The translations under genes were made by a program, and so were the position numbers. 64,000 nt of DNA, from positions 192,001 to 256,000 of the forward strand of contig CAWHTE010000011.1 of assembly GCA_963832165.1 (NCBI GenBank). Reading direction: 5' to 3'. Below the pieces are notes generated by a model that was not told the origin of the DNA, did no database searches, and was given only the letters and a program-made list of their open reading frames with translations. How positions within the stretch are numbered: the stretch's first letter is position 1; every line of letters starts with the position of its first letter. The stretch comes from an uncultured delta proteobacterium. GTDB lineage: Bacteria > Myxococcota_A > UBA9160 > SMWR01. Positions 637 through 31,826 of this stretch are shown here, in pieces.

Positions 637-3600
637 TCAGGACGCGGACTTCGCGTTTTCTTTGTTCAGATCCTGGAACTGAGTCACGAGCTGCTGCAGA
701 GCGCCCGCCATTCGCGAGAGCTCCTGCGCCGCGCGCTGCGTGCTCGACGCACCCTGCGTCGTGTTCTCGGCGGCCTGTGCCACCGCAGAGATGTTCTGCG
801 AGATCTGCCCCGATCCGCGGGCTGCCTCGCCGACGCTGCGCGCCACCTCGCCCGCGGTCGCTGTCTGCTCCTCGACGGAGCTCGCGATCGTGGTCTGGAT
901 GTCGTTGATCTTGGTGATCGTGCTGCTGATCTCGTCGATCGCCTTGATCACGTCGTCGGTGTCGCCCTGGATCGTCGAGATCTTCCCGCTGATCTCCTCG
1001 GTGGCGCGCGCCGTCTCCTTGGCGAGCTCCTTCACCTCGTTCGCGACCACCGCGAAGCCCTTGCCGGCCTCGCCCGCGCGCGCGGCCTCGATCGTGGCGT
1101 TGAGCGCGAGCAGGTTGGTCTGCTGGGCGATCGAGGTGATCACCTTGATCACCTTGCCGATCTCCTCGCTCGAGGTGCCCAGCTTCGCGACCGTCTCGGA
1201 GGTGCGACCCGCCACCGCGACCGCCTGGCTCGCGACGCGCGTCGCCTCGGTGGCGCTCTTCGCGATCTCGCGGATACTCGAGTTCATCTCCTCGATACCC
1301 GCCGCCACACTGTCGACGTTCTTCGAGACCTGCGACGAGGCCGCCGACACCTGCGTGGCCTGGGCCGAGGTCTCCTGTGCGTTGCTCGACATCTCCTGCG
1401 AGACCGCGGTCAGCTCCTGAGCCGCGGTGCCGAGGCTCTGCGAGTTGCCGGTCACCTCCGAGAGCATGTTGCGCAGACCCGCGGTGAGGCGCTTCTCGCG
1501 CTCCTCGGCCGCGAGCTTCTCGGTGATCAGCTCCCAGGTCACCATCGGCCCGAGGTAGGTGCCCTTGGCGTCGTAGATCGCCGACACGAGCAGGTCGGCG
1601 GTCTCCGGGCCGACCTCGATGTTCGCGCGCAGCGGCAGGTTCTTGTCGTTGGCGAGCAGCTTGCGCTGGTACGACGCGTCCTTGTGGAAGATGTCGATCG
1701 ACGCACCGACCATCTTGTCGACCGTCACCGGCAGGTACTTCTCGAGCGTCTTCGCCACCTGCCTCGATGCCGGGTTCATGTACACGATGTTGAGGTCGAG
1801 GCTGGCCATCATCACCGCGGTGGGCGCGTTGTCGGCGATCGCCTGCGTGCGCGCGAGGTCGTTCTGGGCCTTGAGCCGCTCGGTGATGAGCTCCCAGGTC
1901 ACCATCGGACCGAGGTACTTGCCCTTTGCGTCGTAGGTCGCGGACACCAGCAGGTCGGCCGTCTCGGGGCCGATCTGGATGTTCGCGCGCAGCGGCAGGT
2001 TCTTTTCGTTCGCGAGCAGCTTGCGCTGATACGCCGGGTCCTTGTGGAAGACGTCGATCGTCGAGCCGACCATCTTGTCGACCGCCACCGGCAGGTACTT
2101 CTCGACCGCCTTGGCGACCTGGAGCGACTGCGGGTTCATGTACACGATGTTGAGATCGAGGTCGGCCATCATCACCGCGGTGGGCGCGTTGTCGGCGATC
2201 GCCTGCGTGCGCGCGAGGTCGTTCTGGACCTTGAGCCGCTCGGTGACGAGCTCCCAGGTCACCATCGGACCGAGGTACTTGCCCTTCGCGTCGTAGGTCG
2301 CGGACACGAGCAGGTCGGCCGTCTCGGGTCCGATCGAGATGTTTGCGCGCAGCGGCAGGTTCTTCTCGTTCGCGAGCAGCTTGCGCTGATACGACGGGTC
2401 CTTGTGGAACACGTCGATCGTCGAGCCGACCATCTTGTCGACCGCCACCGGCAGGTACTTCTCGACCGCCTTGGCGACCTGGAGCGACTGCGGGTTCATG
2501 TACACGATGTTGAGGTCGAGGTCGGCCATCATCACCGCGGTGGGCGCGTTGTCGGCGATCGCCTGGGTGCGCGCGAGGTCGTTCTGGATCTTCAGCTTCT
2601 CGGTCACGAGCTCCCAGGTCACCATCGGCCCGAGGTAGTTCTTGTCCTGGTCGTAGGTCGCCGAGACGAGCAGGTCTGCCATCTCCGGCCCGATCATGAT
2701 GTTCGCGCGCACGGGAAGGTTCTTGTCGTTCGCGAGGATCCGGCGCTGATAGGCCGGATCCTTGTGGAAGATGTCGACGTTCGAGCCGAGCACCTTTTCG
2801 GGCTTGACCGGAAGGTGCTGCTCCAGCTTCTTGAGCGTCGTCTCTGACGCCGGGTTCATGTAGATGATGTTGAGGTCCTTGTCGGCGAGCATCACGTTGG
2901 TCGGTGCGTTCGCGACCATCGACTGGATGCGCGCCTGCTCCACCTCGAGCTGCTTGGTCGCGGTGAGGTCGGTGGCGAACTTCACCACGCGGTAGACCTT
3001 GCCGGACAAGTCACGGATCGGGTTGTACGAGCCCTGGATCCAGACCTCTCCGCCGTCCTTGGCAATGCGCTTGAACTGCCCGGTGCGGTACTCGCCGCGC
3101 TGCAGATCGCCCCAGAAGTCTCGGTACTCCTGGCTGTCCGCGAACTTCTTCTCGACGAGCACGCGGTGGTGGCGGCCCTTCAGCTCGTCGAGCGTGTAGC
3201 CCACGAGGTTCAGGAAGATTTCGTTGGCCGCCACGATCGTGCCGTCGAGCTCGAACTCGATCACGGCCTGCGACTTGCCGATCGCTTCGATCTGGCTCGT
3301 GAAGTCGGCATTGCGCTCCTCGAGCCGCAGCCGATCGCTGATCAGCTCCCAGGTCACCATCGGGCCGAGGTAGCCGCCCTTGGCGTCGTAGATCGCCGAG
3401 ACGAGCAGGTCCGCGGTCTCGGGGCCGATCTTGATGTTTGCGCGCACGGGCAGGTTCTTGTCGTTCGAGAGAATCCGCCGCTGATAGGCCGGGTCGCGGT
3501 GGAACAGGTCGATCGAAGATCCGAGCACCTGATCGGCCTTGACCGGCAGGTGCTGCTCGATCGTCTTCAGCGTCTTCTGCGACGCCGGATTCACGAACAT

Positions 3601-27260: not shown

Positions 27261-27653
27261 ATGCGGGCCGAACAGCAGCCGCTCACGCCCCGCGAGATCG
27301 AGGTTCTTAGGTGGGTGGCGCGCGGCAAGTCGGCCTGGGATGTCAGTGCGATTCTGGGCATCACCAAGCGAACCGTGGAAGAGCACGTGCACAACGCGAT
27401 GGGAAAGCTCGGCGCTTCGAACCGCACCGAGGCAGTGGTGATCGCCATCCGGCGACCGGATCATCAGCGCGGGCGACTCGGAATAGTCCACTCAGGCGGT
27501 GCGCCGCCCCACCCGCTGTGCATGCGAGCAGCGCGGGGGCTTTGTAACGCGCGCGCCCTACCGAGAAATCTTCCGCTGTACGAGCAGGCCCACCAGACCG
27601 AGGCCGAGCAGCGCCGCAGTCGTCGGATCCGGAACCGGGAGGCCTGCAAGTAG
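27261..27653 (+). CDS. Stand-alone LuxR-type HTH protein
   Basis: LTPREIEVLRWVARGKSAWDVSAILGITKRTVEEH...KLGASNRTEAV; no sensor domain seen; 3' end uncertain. Confidence 0.75.
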   Translation: MRAEQQPLTPREIEVLRWVARGKSAWDVSAILGITKRTVEEHVHNAMGKLGASNRTEAVVIAIRRPDHQRGRLGIVHSGGAPPHPLCMRAARGLCNARALPRNLPLYEQAHQTEAEQRRSRRIRNREACK

Positions 27654-28050
27654 GCGTCCGAGTGAGACACGAAGACGTCGCCGCTGACCAGCCCCAGGCC
27701 GAGGATCGCGTTGATGAACTGGATATGGATCGCGTTCACGATCAACTTGCAGCTCGCGACTGCCCCGGCGCAGCTCGCAGCAGGAATGCCATCTGCCAGA
27801 TAGCTCTGCTCGTTGGCGGTGACGGTCATTCCACCGAGGTTGAGGAGAACGGTGTTGGCGGCCGGGGACCGGCGTTCCGTTCACCAACGATCCACTGGTT
27901 GCTGCGGACTCGACACCGCGAGCGCGCCGGTCAGCGAGACGGATTCGCCATAACCCGTGCTGTTCCCGGCGCTCGGCAGTGCGCGCGCAATGCTGGATGA
28001 CCCGACCAGCATCCCGACCATCGAAAAGACGGCTAGCACCTTGCTCATCA
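27558..28050 (-). pseudogene. Fragmented PEP-CTERM protein with choice-of-anchor P-like domain
   Basis: Signal peptide MSKVLAVF...ARA; NTVLLNLGGMTVTANEQ...VNAIHI...GDVFVSHSDA in another frame; VPDPTTAALLGLGLVGLLVQRK in a third. Confidence 0.6.
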
Positions 28051-28104
28051 TCAACCTCCGCTTCACGCAGTTTCACAGTGCTTGTCCACCCGTAGCCGCG
28101 CGAG

Positions 28105-28338
28105 CTAGCGATTGCGTCGCACTGCCGTGCTCGCGATCGCCAAACCCAGTCCGAACACGAGCATCGCGCTGGATTCAGGAATCGGCTGCGGGAACTCGTT
28201 GCGATCTTCGTTAGTCGACGCGACGACGATCGCCGGCGACGTGGCCGGCGCATTGCCGTGGCTCGCGCCACCGCCGCAATCTGCACCCAGACTCGAAAGA
28301 ACCATGAGCAGAATCAACAACAGGCGCATCCGCAACAT
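28105..28338 (-). CDS. Miniature PEP-CTERM-like protein (77 aa)
   Basis: Hydrophobic signal, about 30-aa spacer, IPESSAMLVFGLGLAIASTAVRRNR. Confidence 0.65.
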   Translation of the reverse strand: MLRMRLLLILLMVLSSLGADCGGGASHGNAPATSPAIVVASTNEDRNEFPQPIPESSAMLVFGLGLAIASTAVRRNR

Positions 28339-28416: not shown

Positions 28417-30927
28417 CTAGACACACGGAAAGGGCAAGCGGCGATGGCGGCCGGCGACTGCGAGCGCTCCGAGGCCCATGACTACCATCGCAGCGGTCCC
28501 CGCCTCCGGAACCGGGATCGTCTCTACCGTCACCGAAAGCCCGTCGAAGTCCTTCTTGTTGATGAAGGCTCTCTCACCGCTATCCGCAAAGGCGAGCAAT
28601 GCGTTGTCGATGTTGACGCCAGCGCTCGTGGCGGTGGCCCCACACGCATCGGGGATCGCGCCGGTCCCGCCCGTGCCGTTCAGACCGCCCGTCGCGGGAT
28701 CGAAAAAGCCGCTTCCGGCGCACGCGTCCGCGAGGATCGAGGTAAATTCGTACTCCTCGTGCAGCCCCCAGACGTCGATGCCATTGAACGATGCGGTGGT
28801 AAACTGCAGCGCCGTGCGTCGCGCATACTCCACCTCGAGATTCCCACCACCGGACGCGGGGATCAGCAGCTCGAGTCGGACGAGCGTCGTGACGCTGGCC
28901 TGGCTATCCGACGGCTCGGAACCGAAGACCAGCCAGTCGCCATTCTCTTCGAGAATCAGGCTGTCCATGGAAAAGTTCTCGTGGGGGCTGATCGTGAAGA
29001 TCAGGTTCCCGTCGAGGAAGTCCGGATTACTGGTGTTCGAATCCGCCTCGAAGCCAATCGGATCGAAGTCGAGCAGATCCCCAGCGCATTCCGGCTGGTT
29101 GTAGAGCGGCGCGTCGGCGCTGCTCTCGGCGATGTTCGTGTAGTCGACTGTGGCGCAGGAGCGGGAGCTGTGCGCGATCGTCGCGGCCCCGGCGCTGGAC
29201 GCAGGAGCCCAGGCAACGGCGAACGATCCGACGGACAGCGCCAACTTCGCGACCATCCCGCCACCGACCGAAAATCCCGGGCTGCGCAGCTTCGTTCGCC
29301 TCACCCAGAGAGCGAGGCCGATCAAGCCGGTCGCAAGGAGCAAGCCCGCCGAGGGCTCGGGCACGAACGTCACCTCGATCTCGAAGGTCTTCTTGTGGAT
29401 GTCGTTGGTGCCGCCGTCGAACGAGAAGACCTCGAGCGAGTTGTCGAACTGGAAGATCTCGATGGCAGTCGCGTGCGTGGTCAGCGCACCAACATTCGCG
29501 ATGAGCTCGCCGTTCCAGATGGCGTCGGGGTCGGGGTCTACCCAGTGTCCGTCCCCGGCAGTCCCAAGCGGAGTGAAGCCCATGCTGACGGACTGAGACG
29601 GAATCGAGAGATTCGTGATGAAATCGAGCGCGGTGACCCGGTAGAAGAGATTGCCGATCACCTGCGCCGAACCGTCCAGCGACAGGTTGTAATCACCCGA
29701 CTCGCGGATGGTGATCGAACCGATCCGCGCATTGGGATTGGTGGATTGCGGGATCACGATGTCCAACAGGAGTCTCGTGTCGACGAGGTCTCCCGAGGCG
29801 CTGGTCGTCTCGGCAAAGAACGACGGATCGACGTCGAAGACCAACGTAGTGCCGGCGAGGAAGATGTTATTGGGATCGCCGCCGTTCACGAGCAGCGGCG
29901 GATCCGGATTCGTCGCTGATTCCTGGATGTTGTTGTACTGGATCAGCGTGTTCTGCTTGTCGCCATAGTTCACTACCAACGCGGATGCAGAGGTCGCGAA
30001 AGCAACGACCAGGCCAAACGCAACGGCGAACGATCCGACGGACACCGCCAACTTAGCGGCTATCCCGCCACGGATCGGAAATCCCATGCTGTACCGTTTC
30101 GCTCGCCGCGCCCAGAGAGCGAGGCCGATCAAGCCGGTCGCAAGGAGCAAGCCCGCCGAGGGCTCGGGCACGCCACTGAAGCCGCCGCTACCAAAATCAG
30201 TGCGGCCGCTGCCGAGGTCACCGCCGCCGGTGCAATCATTGGAGATGGTGTTCGTATCCATCGTCACTGCGCCATTGAGCGCGATGGCCCTTCCGCACAG
30301 AATCCTCACACCGCTAGTCAAAGTAATGCTCTGGTCCGCGAGGATATTGCCTGCGAACGTCGTCAACGTACCGAGAGTTGCGGAACTGCCGACCGCAAAA
30401 TAGACGCCAGTGTTGGCGCCACCATTGATGACGTTCACGCTCGAGCCGCTGGCGGTCGTCAGGGTGCTCCCGATCTGGACAATGAACAACGCATTGGGAT
30501 CACCTTGAGCGTCGAGGGTGAGGATCCCCGTCAGCTGAGCCGATGTGTCAAAGTTATAGACGCCCGCAAACAACGTTAGGCCGCCGAGATCTTGGCCCGT
30601 CAGATCGCTTGTGAACGGCTCGGTTTGCAGCGAAGTGAACGCTGTGCTCGCGTCGAGCTGCGCCTGCTGCGCTACCGCATCAGTTTGGTGCACGGTTCCG
30701 GTCAGCGTGATGCTGCCTAGACCCGTGATCGAGGTGCCGGGGTAGACACCCAGGTCGCCATTGATGGTGGTGGCGCCCGTGTTTGTCACGGTCGAAGCGC
30801 CCAGGACCGCAAAGCTCTCCGCCGTGCCCAGGGGAAAGGGCGTGGCCCATCCAGGGGCGGCATATAGAAGCGCGCCGAATATGAGGATCGCGAGCAGGGA
30901 CGAGAAGGGGAGCCTATGGAGGGGCAT
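28417..30927 (-). CDS. Triple PEP-CTERM polyprotein-like protein; first cargo is a DUF3494 ice-binding domain
   Basis: [13 protein letters not shown]...[18 protein letters not shown]...[12 protein letters not shown] (DUF3494); VPEP-TM-basic at aa about 253 and 522 and VPEAG-TM-basic at about 806; signal-peptide-like segments follow the two internal sorting signals. Confidence 0.9.
29213..30172. repeat. Direct repeat of an about 150-bp linker (29213-29365 and 30020-30172, offset 807)
   Basis: 62 identical bases at 29304-29365 and 30111-30172; near-identical gcaacggcgaacgatccgacggaca...atcccgccac at 29213 and 30020. Confidence 0.92.
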
Positions 30928-31460: not shown

Positions 31461-31826
31461 TTAGCACCGCCGAGGCCGCTTACGCGGCGCGCGAGATTTC
31501 TTGGACCGGCTGGGAAGCGGCCCGCACGGGACCGCGGAATCGATGGCGTCCTCGAACTCACCTTCGGTGGTGAAACCGAAGGCCCTCATCAAGCCATCCC
31601 TGAGTTCTTGGCTCTCCCGGTATTCCGGTAGGGGTTTCACCCGATCGTTAGCCGATCTAATGTTTCGCTTGCCATAGAGGATTCGGTGGATCGTCGACTG
31701 ATGGACACCGATTCTGCGCGCGATCTCGGTCGTATTGGGAAGCTCGAACGGGCCCTTGCGGAGCGTGCTGCGCTCCTCGAACTGATTCTTTAGGAATCCC
31801 CGGAGCTTTGACAGCCGATCTGCCAT
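31461..31826 (-). CDS. Small HTH DNA-binding protein (Cro/XRE-like)
   Basis: TTEIARRIGVHQSTIHRILYG helix-turn-helix; basic C-terminal tail. Confidence 0.65.
   Translation of the reverse strand: MADRLSKLRGFLKNQFEERSTLRKGPFELPNTTEIARRIGVHQSTIHRILYGKRNIRSANDRVKPLPEYRESQELRDGLMRAFGFTTEGEFEDAIDSAVPCGPLPSRSKKSRAPRKRPRRC

Follow-up and report, generated by a model that had tools for sequence, protein, structure and literature searches.

Within a 64,000-nucleotide stretch of DNA from an uncultured delta proteobacterium (GenBank contig CAWHTE010000011.1, positions 192,001 to 256,000 of the forward strand; the whole stretch is called the window here), we analysed a long open reading frame (ORF), P0001, in which three units follow one another in a single frame. 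Each unit consists of a signal-like segment, a cargo and a PEP-CTERM sorting tag. A preliminary description of the window had proposed this architecture, and it was borne out by an open frame of 836 codons with three PEP-CTERM stretches; the residue positions given there were correct to within one or two (VPEPSAG at 253 and 522, VPEAG at 806, ASA|L at 316/317 and AGA|A at 581/582). The junctions between units 1 and 2 and between units 2 and 3 are referred to as J1 and J2. The parts of the ORF are as follows.

28417..30927, minus strand: whole ORF (P0001), three units in one frame; 836 codons, ATG start, no internal stop
30844..30927, minus strand: putative N-terminal signal peptide, residues 1-28, ending PGWA|TP; hydrophobic segment 6-28, Shine-Dalgarno-like GAGG upstream (duplex -6.3 kcal/mol)
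30172..30843, minus strand: cargo 1, ice-binding-like DUF3494 domain, residues 29-252; PF11999, E 1.4e-55
30094..30171, minus strand: internal PEP-CTERM 1, residues 253-278 (VPEPSAG...WARRAKR); 28.5 bits with the genome's own PEP-CTERM model
29980..30093, minus strand: basic loop and signal-like segment 2, residues 279-316; its cleavage region aligns with signal peptides of stand-alone paralogues
29365..29979, minus strand: cargo 2, residues 317-521, uncharacterised beta-sandwich family; matches the stand-alone gene C7-A (family alignment A2)
29290..29364, minus strand: internal PEP-CTERM 2, residues 522-546 (VPEPSAG...WVRRTK); 27.3 bits with the genome's own model
29185..29289, minus strand: basic loop and signal-like segment 3, residues 547-581; counterpart of the junction in the homologous locus L023
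28513..29184, minus strand: cargo 3, residues 582-805, a further member of the cargo 2 family (25% identity between the two); 88% identity with unit 3 of L023
28417..28512, minus strand: terminal PEP-CTERM 3 (VPEAG...) and stop codon; best PF07589 stretch at residues 805-830
30020..30172, unstranded: junction repeat of 153 nucleotides, copy 1
29213..29365, unstranded: junction repeat of 153 nucleotides, copy 2

The Pfam model PF07589 matched three stretches of the protein (E 5.8e-14; 51.9 bits against a cut-off of 20.7), the number that had been predicted for a scan with a PEP-CTERM profile. The NCBIfam model TIGR02595 scored 30.6 bits against a cut-off of 16 and, together with several PEP-CTERM family models, matched at about residues 251-275, 516-545 and 799-830. 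Tag 3 alone is terminal, ending 6 residues before the stop codon; another 558 residues come after tag 1 and another 290 after tag 2.

A hydropathy scan revealed six hydrophobic segments (6-28, 257-274, 289-320, 526-543, 558-572 and 809-827), the first of which ends GWA|T. The loops behind the two internal PEP-CTERM helices are 19-20 residues long, with 6 and 5 lysine or arginine residues and no aspartate or glutamate, and each leads into a hydrophobic segment ending at ASA|L (316/317) or AGA|A (581/582). Whether a segment counts as a signal peptide was judged from its hydropathy, from the -3/-1 rule and from how it aligns with the signals of stand-alone paralogues. The hydrophobic (h-) region comprises about 19 residues in signal 2 and about 13 in signal 3, and the cleavage (c-) region of signal 2 is that of the stand-alone paralogue signals (...TSASA|LTVNYG). 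The layout is of the polyprotein type: within one ORF, stop-transfer segments alternate with internal signals, and the topology is consistent. The self-consistent topology with basic cytoplasmic loops that had been put forward agrees with the loop charges (+6 and +5, no acidic residues).

J1 and J2 form a direct repeat of 153 nucleotides with 90% identity, the first 61 nucleotides being identical. The preliminary description had counted both junctions, homologous and open, as evidence. They are indeed homologous and open but, being copies of one cassette, count as a single observation and not as two independent ones. Stop-codon reassignment or programmed read-through was considered and set aside as unneeded, there being no stop codon at either junction.

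A search with residues 230-600 retrieved P0003 (568 amino acids; JGI and ENA; 4 contigs), a protein made of unit 1, an open junction and unit 3, with no unit 2. It is borne by L023, an independent metagenome contig whose flanking sequence is common with the window (syntenic). When four versions of the junction (J1, J2, that of the paralogous locus L002 and that of L023) were compared codon by codon, zero indels and zero stops were found. Ratios of nonsynonymous to synonymous substitution (dN/dS) between the window and L023, calculated by the Nei-Gojobori method, were 0.217 for unit 1 (synonymous divergence, dS, 0.44) and 0.285 for unit 3 (dS 0.23, no gaps). Within the junction the ratio was 0.17 for the PEP helix, which with the PEP motif is its most conserved part, and 0.375 for the h- and c-region of the signal. 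Because the fusion is present in both the window and L023 (dS 0.23-0.44, dN/dS below 0.3), it is older than the separation of the two lineages, and purifying selection has acted on each cargo. J2 has no nearby stop in any of the three frames, so that a hidden single indel cannot mask a gene boundary there. These comparisons indicate that the ORF is a genuine in-frame gene fusion and not an assembly slip; the earlier view that a chance sequencing fusion is unlikely was thereby strengthened, given the equally open junction of L023 and the lack of a stop in any frame at J2.

The three-unit form has a shorter history than the fusion itself. Unit 2 (residues 312 to about 539) is 95.5% identical in nucleotides, without gaps, to C7-A, a stand-alone gene of the same genome. 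L002, the sole other copy of J1 (97.7% identical), matches the window at 97.7% identity over a stretch that starts upstream of the gene and stops precisely at the VPEP of tag 2, past which it has an ordinary terminal tag and then a stop; its unit 2 carries a one-base frameshift. Signal 2 is chimeric, with an N-terminal (n-) and h-region like that of signal 3 and the c-region of stand-alone unit-2 genes. On the simplest reading, cargo 2 would have been recently spliced into an ancestor that, like L023, had unit 1 joined directly to unit 3, with duplication of the junction. Loss of a stop between tightly packed tandem genes may have given rise to that precursor, into which cargo 2 would then have been inserted by recombination inside the signal-peptide and PEP-CTERM coding sequences. 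The recent insertion of unit 2 makes the three-unit form a young one. Selection for the fixed 1:1:1 stoichiometry suggested in the preliminary description is therefore not backed by conservation, the syntenic L023 having two units only.

We also asked what the three cargoes are. Residues 41-228 of unit 1 match positions 1-207 of the 208 in the Pfam profile PF11999 (E 1.4e-55). As the equivalog model NF045625 (IBP_CFB) gave 51.3 bits, below its cut-off of 400, ice-binding activity of unit 1 is not to be assumed. Unit-1 homologues with 56-77% identity were collected from 80 metagenome loci and 68 named genome loci (Proteobacteria, Acidobacteria, Planctomycetota and others). Apart from L023, the distance from tag to stop is 0-16 residues in the metagenome set and 0-44 in the genome set, one frame being interrupted by a contig end. 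Judged by these homologues, unit 1 is a member of a widespread family that combines a DUF3494 domain with a PEP-CTERM tag. The locus search with the whole ORF returned solely unit-1 homologues, none of them fused.

Cargoes 2 and 3 matched no Pfam or NCBIfam family. The two units are 25% identical to each other and align with stand-alone PEP-CTERM genes of this genome (two on C7, one on C2) and of relatives, and by this alignment they are members of one uncharacterised beta-sandwich family whose genes normally stand alone. Stand-alone homologues of unit 3 (L067 and P0048-P0050) come with a Shine-Dalgarno sequence, ATG, signal peptide and terminal tag of their own. The AlphaFold model of unit 3 is an all-beta sandwich (pLDDT 78.6, pTM 0.75), and its best Foldseek matches were Bdellovibrio Bd1399 (E 1.3e-7, TMq 0.34) and carbohydrate-binding modules, with TM-scores of at most 0.34; the model suggests a fold class only, a jelly-roll or carbohydrate-binding-module-like beta-sandwich, to which no function is assigned. 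Several NCBIfam names (NF038129, XDP1, TLD and others) were rejected, the scores being below cut-offs and driven by the tag alone. NF038129, for instance, scored 54.1 bits against a cut-off of 65 with its best stretch confined to the tag (516-544), and the cargoes alone gave no match. When units 2 and 3 were compared by BLASTP with the plus-strand frames of the 80 metagenome loci, matches were found in L023 and L067 alone; as far as these loci indicate, there is no general pairing of DUF3494 and beta-sandwich genes. Prediction of a complex between units 1 and 3 gave a score of 0.00, which has no bearing on binding.

Tags of this kind are plentiful in the genome (G000). A PEP-CTERM hidden Markov model (HMM) made from 93 of its own C-terminal tags was used to search 45,556 stop-to-stop frames of at least 60 residues from the whole genome. 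Matches ended within 15 residues of the frame end in 113 cases and had more than 40 residues after them in 8. Half of these eight are junctions of a tag with a signal: this ORF accounts for two, L002 for one and a lipase-like pair on C7 for the fourth. The other half consists of two stopless tags running into unrelated sequence and two weak matches scoring near 10 bits. Within the genome the layout is thus unusual, and it cannot be put down to chance. The genome also possesses at least five exosortase genes, according to six PF09721 matches above the cut-off, two of which are halves of one split gene.

The layout recurs in other bacteria. A profile of five junctions (A1) was searched against 1.84 billion representative proteins and 151 genomes of the same order. 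Among the representative proteins there were 44 matches at E <= 0.001, and in 39 of them at least one internal PEP-CTERM is followed by a signal-like segment, as judged by a crude hydropathy and AxA test; proteins with an internal PEP-CTERM followed by a signal peptide, for which a database search had been advised, were thus found. The five failing this test were P0011 (the G031 protein, whose tag was missed by our HMM), P0038 (a repeat-protein false positive), P0030, P0031 and P0043. The largest array was seen in P0004, with 2500 amino acids and 10 tags. Because the profile selects for such proteins, these counts establish their existence and not their frequency. For the 151 genomes, the best 150 of 475 matches were surveyed. 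Stop-free full-length junction matches among those listed came from G000 (4), G031, G108 (2), G153, G129, G131 and G072, and among the matches listed open junctions were present in at least 8 of the 151 genomes of the order. Those of G108 (one as L187), G131 and G072 are profile matches, and the junctions of G153, G119, G129, G031 and the C7 lipase pair were read; curated PEP-CTERM models gave weak or no scores at the G031 and C7 junctions. Nine more full-length matches among those listed had a same-frame stop between tag and signal and represent tightly packed tandem genes.

Compared with the ORF of the window, the multi-unit proteins P0004, P0006 and P0007 share the order of a tag, an R/K-rich loop of about 5-20 residues, a signal-like helix running to AxA, and the next cargo. 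They differ in having unrelated cargoes (mostly LamG- or lectin-like by eye) and more units, and in coming from other lineages. No experimental study of multi-unit PEP-CTERM proteins was found in the literature searched.

Taken together, these results are best accommodated by a single chain that would be threaded through the membrane via Sec and cut by signal peptidase I and exosortase into three sorted proteins, a reading to which we give a probability of roughly 55%. It builds on four observations: the ORF is unbroken, the open junction is conserved, the units are under purifying selection, and the layout recurs. The chain would enter the Sec translocon via the N-terminal signal peptide. Each PEP-CTERM helix would act as a stop-transfer segment, the short +5 or +6 loop staying in the cytoplasm, and the next signal-like segment would restart export. 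Signal peptidase I would then cut after ASA(316) and AGA(581) and exosortase at each PEP motif, which would yield three proteins, each sorted on its own, and two helical hairpins that are discarded. All of the proteolysis, and where the products end up, is what we infer from sequence.

Several points weigh against this scheme. That exosortase accepts a PEP-CTERM tag away from the C-terminus is likewise something that we infer. The loop of the junction, at a dN/dS of 0.91, is nearly neutral. With the three-unit form so young, the junction that evolution appears to have tested is that of unit 1 - unit 3 only, in one pair of homologues. Apart from L023, the unit-1 homologues of 148 loci are all unfused; the fusion is lineage-specific and could be no more than tolerated. 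The ATG ahead of signal 3 has moderate Shine-Dalgarno pairing, as detailed below. The assembly (11 contigs, 89% complete) shows apparent frameshifts in several genes, among them unit 2 of L002, one of the exosortase genes (on C3) and the neighbouring PEP-CTERM gene downstream of the ORF. In the DNA run X1 (5% of sampled words), short contigs about 90% identical to the ORF contain parts of all three cargoes, and depth is 0 over 29026-29367 and 29938-30165, so that neither junction is covered.

Of the alternatives, the one that survives best, though we consider it unlikely, is a polytopic protein of the inner membrane that is left whole or cut only in part, its three periplasmic domains being held by two helical hairpins. 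Six hydrophobic segments and positive-inside loops would give such a protein a stable topology, and the h-region of signal 2, at about 19 residues, is long enough to be a possible anchor. Moreover, PEP-CTERM is C-terminal by definition, and no experiment on the processing of an internal one was found in the literature searched. The junctions nevertheless look like sites that are cut. AxA-type c-regions are kept, that of signal 2 being the same as in the stand-alone paralogues, and the h-region of signal 3 (about 13 residues) resembles a signal more than an anchor. Nowhere is the junction better conserved than in the PEP motif and helix (dN/dS 0.17), and a related archaeosortase cuts a central tag in HVO_0405, according to the available text of the report (PMC7157517). 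Finally, many proteins have up to 10 units, and a functional tethered chain of 20 helices is hard to envisage.

Internal initiation comes next and is also improbable in our view. Here the fusion would be real and the units would be made from ATG 30087 and ATG 29256, or from a TTG or GTG, with the long chain as a minor or degraded by-product. An in-frame ATG does lie just ahead of the signal-like segment at both window junctions (30087 at J1, 29256 at J2), and the ancestral state was probably one of translationally coupled tandem genes. Pairing with the anti-Shine-Dalgarno sequence was estimated at -5.3 kcal/mol for the J2 ATG, which is moderate and within the top 22% or so of background positions, and at -6.3 kcal/mol for the true start; the J1 ATG, at -3.5 kcal/mol, is at background level (mean -3.1 kcal/mol over 816 in-frame positions). 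The two ATGs are at differing codons and are not conserved, the J1 ATG being CCG in J2 and ACC in L023 and the J2 ATG being ATA in J1 and L023. In L023, the stretch from the tag to the h-region contains neither ATG nor GTG in frame, and the one codon of this kind is a TTG where the h-region begins; internal initiation therefore does not explain L023, in which unit 3 is still under purifying selection (dN/dS 0.285). The possibility that units 2 and 3 come solely from ATG 30087 and ATG 29256, raised in the preliminary description, thus fails for L023 and retains some support for unit 3 from the moderate pairing at J2. As no stop codon is present at the junctions, ribosomes starting at 30927 make the long chain in any case.

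We regard as decidedly improbable a recent neutral or mildly harmful accident, that is, an unpurged chimera of paralogous PEP-CTERM genes whose downstream units may be non-functional. It would fit the very young age of unit 2 and J1, the frameshifted copy of the fusion in L002, the apparently broken PEP-CTERM gene next door, the two further PEP-CTERM genes without stops that run into junk sequence, and the lack of fusion in any other DUF3494 homologue. It fits poorly with a unit 1 - unit 3 fusion that is older than the L023 split (dS 0.23-0.44), with dN/dS below 0.3 and no indels, with an entire 2.5-kb frame that is intact, and with an architecture that is frequent and long-lived elsewhere. 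Least probable is an assembly or sequencing artefact in which three true separate genes had their stops or frame changes lost in the consensus: despite the frameshifts in the assembly and the absence of the junction bases from the X1 contigs, the junction is open on the independently assembled L023 and in the paralogue L002, a single indel would not suffice at J2 with no stop nearby in three frames, both sides of each junction keep the frame of their homologues, the frames of rpoB and rpoC are unbroken over a combined 8 kb, and removal of a stop is a substitution whereas the assembly errors elsewhere are of the indel type.

Other features of the window and of related genomes were noted alongside. 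Directly downstream of the fused gene, at window 28105..28338 (minus strand), is an ORF of 77 residues with a signal-like N-terminus and a PEP-CTERM-like end (IPESSAMLVFGLGLAIASTAVRRNR*); its product would be a minimal exosortase substrate of about 30 mature residues. The next gene, at window 27558..28066 (minus strand), is a PEP-CTERM gene seemingly broken by two frame changes, either a pseudogene or the result of local indel errors, and it is spread over three frames, one with the signal peptide (MKRRLMMSKVLAVFSMVGMLVGSSSIARA), another with the central portion (TVTANEQSYLADG...) and a third with the tag (VPDPTTAALLGLGLVGLLVQRKISR*). Upstream of the fused gene, both in the window (31461..31826, minus strand) and in L002 (3408..3770, minus strand), lies a gene for a helix-turn-helix-like protein of 120 residues (MADRLSKLRGF...GVHQSTIHRILYGKRN...), which is co-duplicated with the fused gene at L002 and is a candidate dedicated regulator.

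The lipase-like pair on C7 (G000:C7:568564-570930, minus strand, equal to L103:1065-3431, minus strand) consists of two paralogous alpha/beta-hydrolase units in one frame. Unit A ends with LPEPSRAAGLLAGILALVLVGRIR, followed by PKGSVVRRNSTRG, the signal-like LAVLAAASIGLTLTAASPASA|GPALE and unit B, which has no terminal tag. In the congener G006, lipase unit A is found alone, with a degenerate tag and then a stop. In L013 (G028:C6), at 1183..2996 (minus strand), tandem stand-alone genes of the unit-2/3 family overlap by 1 base, the last base of the stop being the A of the ATG; the overlap sets a PEP-CTERM tail against the next signal peptide, one small indel short of fusion. The overlapping tandem genes of G028 and the stand-alone lipase of G006 look like pre-fusion ancestral states, going by their layout; the stand-alone unit 3 of L067 and the nine matches with a stop between tag and signal likewise make such a state plausible. 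An open junction of another type is present in L189 (G119:C26, minus-strand frame 0), where the signal behind the PEP-CTERM tag is lipoprotein-like (RARVALGIVLLASMPGC|P) and not of the signal-peptidase-I type.

The stopless tags are located at G000:C3:429066-431891 (plus strand) and G000:C1:809623-811383 (minus strand), with frames that continue for 645 and 304 residues, respectively. Both run into unrelated or neighbouring-gene sequence, which on C1 includes an acyl-CoA-synthetase-like start that then leaves the frame. The split exosortase gene, at G000:C3:208608-209364 (minus strand; L105/L108), is divided into adjacent frames covering profile positions 2-138 and 139-251, owing either to a frameshift or to an indel of the assembly.

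Should cleavage take place as proposed, the locus would represent a polyprotein route for bacterial cell-surface proteins, of which we found no description for exosortase substrates; exosortase tags would function mid-chain, and signal peptidase I would act on internal signals of natural substrates. On a more tentative note, and with less than even odds, the PEP-CTERM helix, loop and signal peptide may constitute a portable junction cassette that converts tandem surface-protein genes into polyproteins delimited by sorting signals. Recombination inside the coding sequences of those signals would add cargoes, as proposed for cargo 2, and co-delivery of surface-protein sets from a single round of translation by Sec, signal peptidase I and exosortase would be widespread in bacteria. 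For annotation, the consequence is that gene callers and domain rules, which assume a terminal PEP-CTERM, render such an ORF as one odd multi-pass protein and undercount surface proteins. The same genome offers a natural control, with cargo 2 in a stand-alone form (C7-A, 95.5% identical) and an embedded form, and the two-unit L023, having no internal ATG or GTG, is a place where the cleavage hypothesis is directly testable.

In the structural polyproteins of flaviviruses and alphaviruses, stop-transfer and internal signal segments alternate, the chain is threaded in and out of the membrane, and host signal peptidase cuts on the far side. Those systems differ from the present ORF in being viral and belonging to the eukaryotic endoplasmic reticulum, in lacking a second, tag-specific sorting protease, and in being non-homologous. 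Comparison can also be made with the canonical substrates of the PEP-CTERM/exosortase (EpsH, Xrt) system. The ORF resembles them in its tripartite tag (PEP motif, helix, basic cluster), present three times, in its putative N-terminal signal peptide, and in a genome with many paralogous substrates (113 terminal tags) and several exosortases. It differs in that two of the three tags are internal and followed by a further signal peptide and cargo. In the text available to us, Haft et al. 2006 describe the PEP-CTERM tag only as C-terminal, the word "internal" being absent, and do not mention more than one tag per protein (PMC1569441). Internal or multiple PEP-CTERM tags in one protein, or a PEP-CTERM polyprotein, were not found in the literature searched, which included few subscription journals.

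For related tags the picture is different. The preliminary description knew of no precedent, which agrees with our search for PEP-CTERM itself but not for two other tag types. Myxococcus xanthus MXAN_5598 is a probable fusion of two genes with an internal MYXO-CTERM; in the available part of the report, its authors put forward processing and anchoring of the N-terminal portion, and state that C-terminal sorting tags work mid-protein (PMC11980579). It shares with the present ORF a sorting tag placed mid-chain in a fused gene and, as described there, differs in its invariant-Cys tag, its myxosortase protease, its single junction and a processing that is the authors' proposal. Haloferax volcanii HVO_0405 is likewise a two-gene fusion, a substrate of ArtA whose central PGF-CTERM-type signal is cleaved in vivo, as stated in the portion of the report at hand (PMC7157517). 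The likeness to our ORF lies in a mid-chain tag of the exosortase/archaeosortase superfamily, the in vivo cleavage being that of HVO_0405; the differences, so far as that text goes, are that HVO_0405 is archaeal, has a PGF and not a PEP motif, and has one junction and no multi-unit array. It is also reportedly a Tat substrate, going by the title of a 2017 article by Abdul Halim. On the available text of the report, archaeal HVO_0405 is the nearest tested precedent, and to it the present locus adds sequence-based evidence that a junction already in place can take up a new cargo, and a genome in which that cargo also occurs on its own as a natural control.

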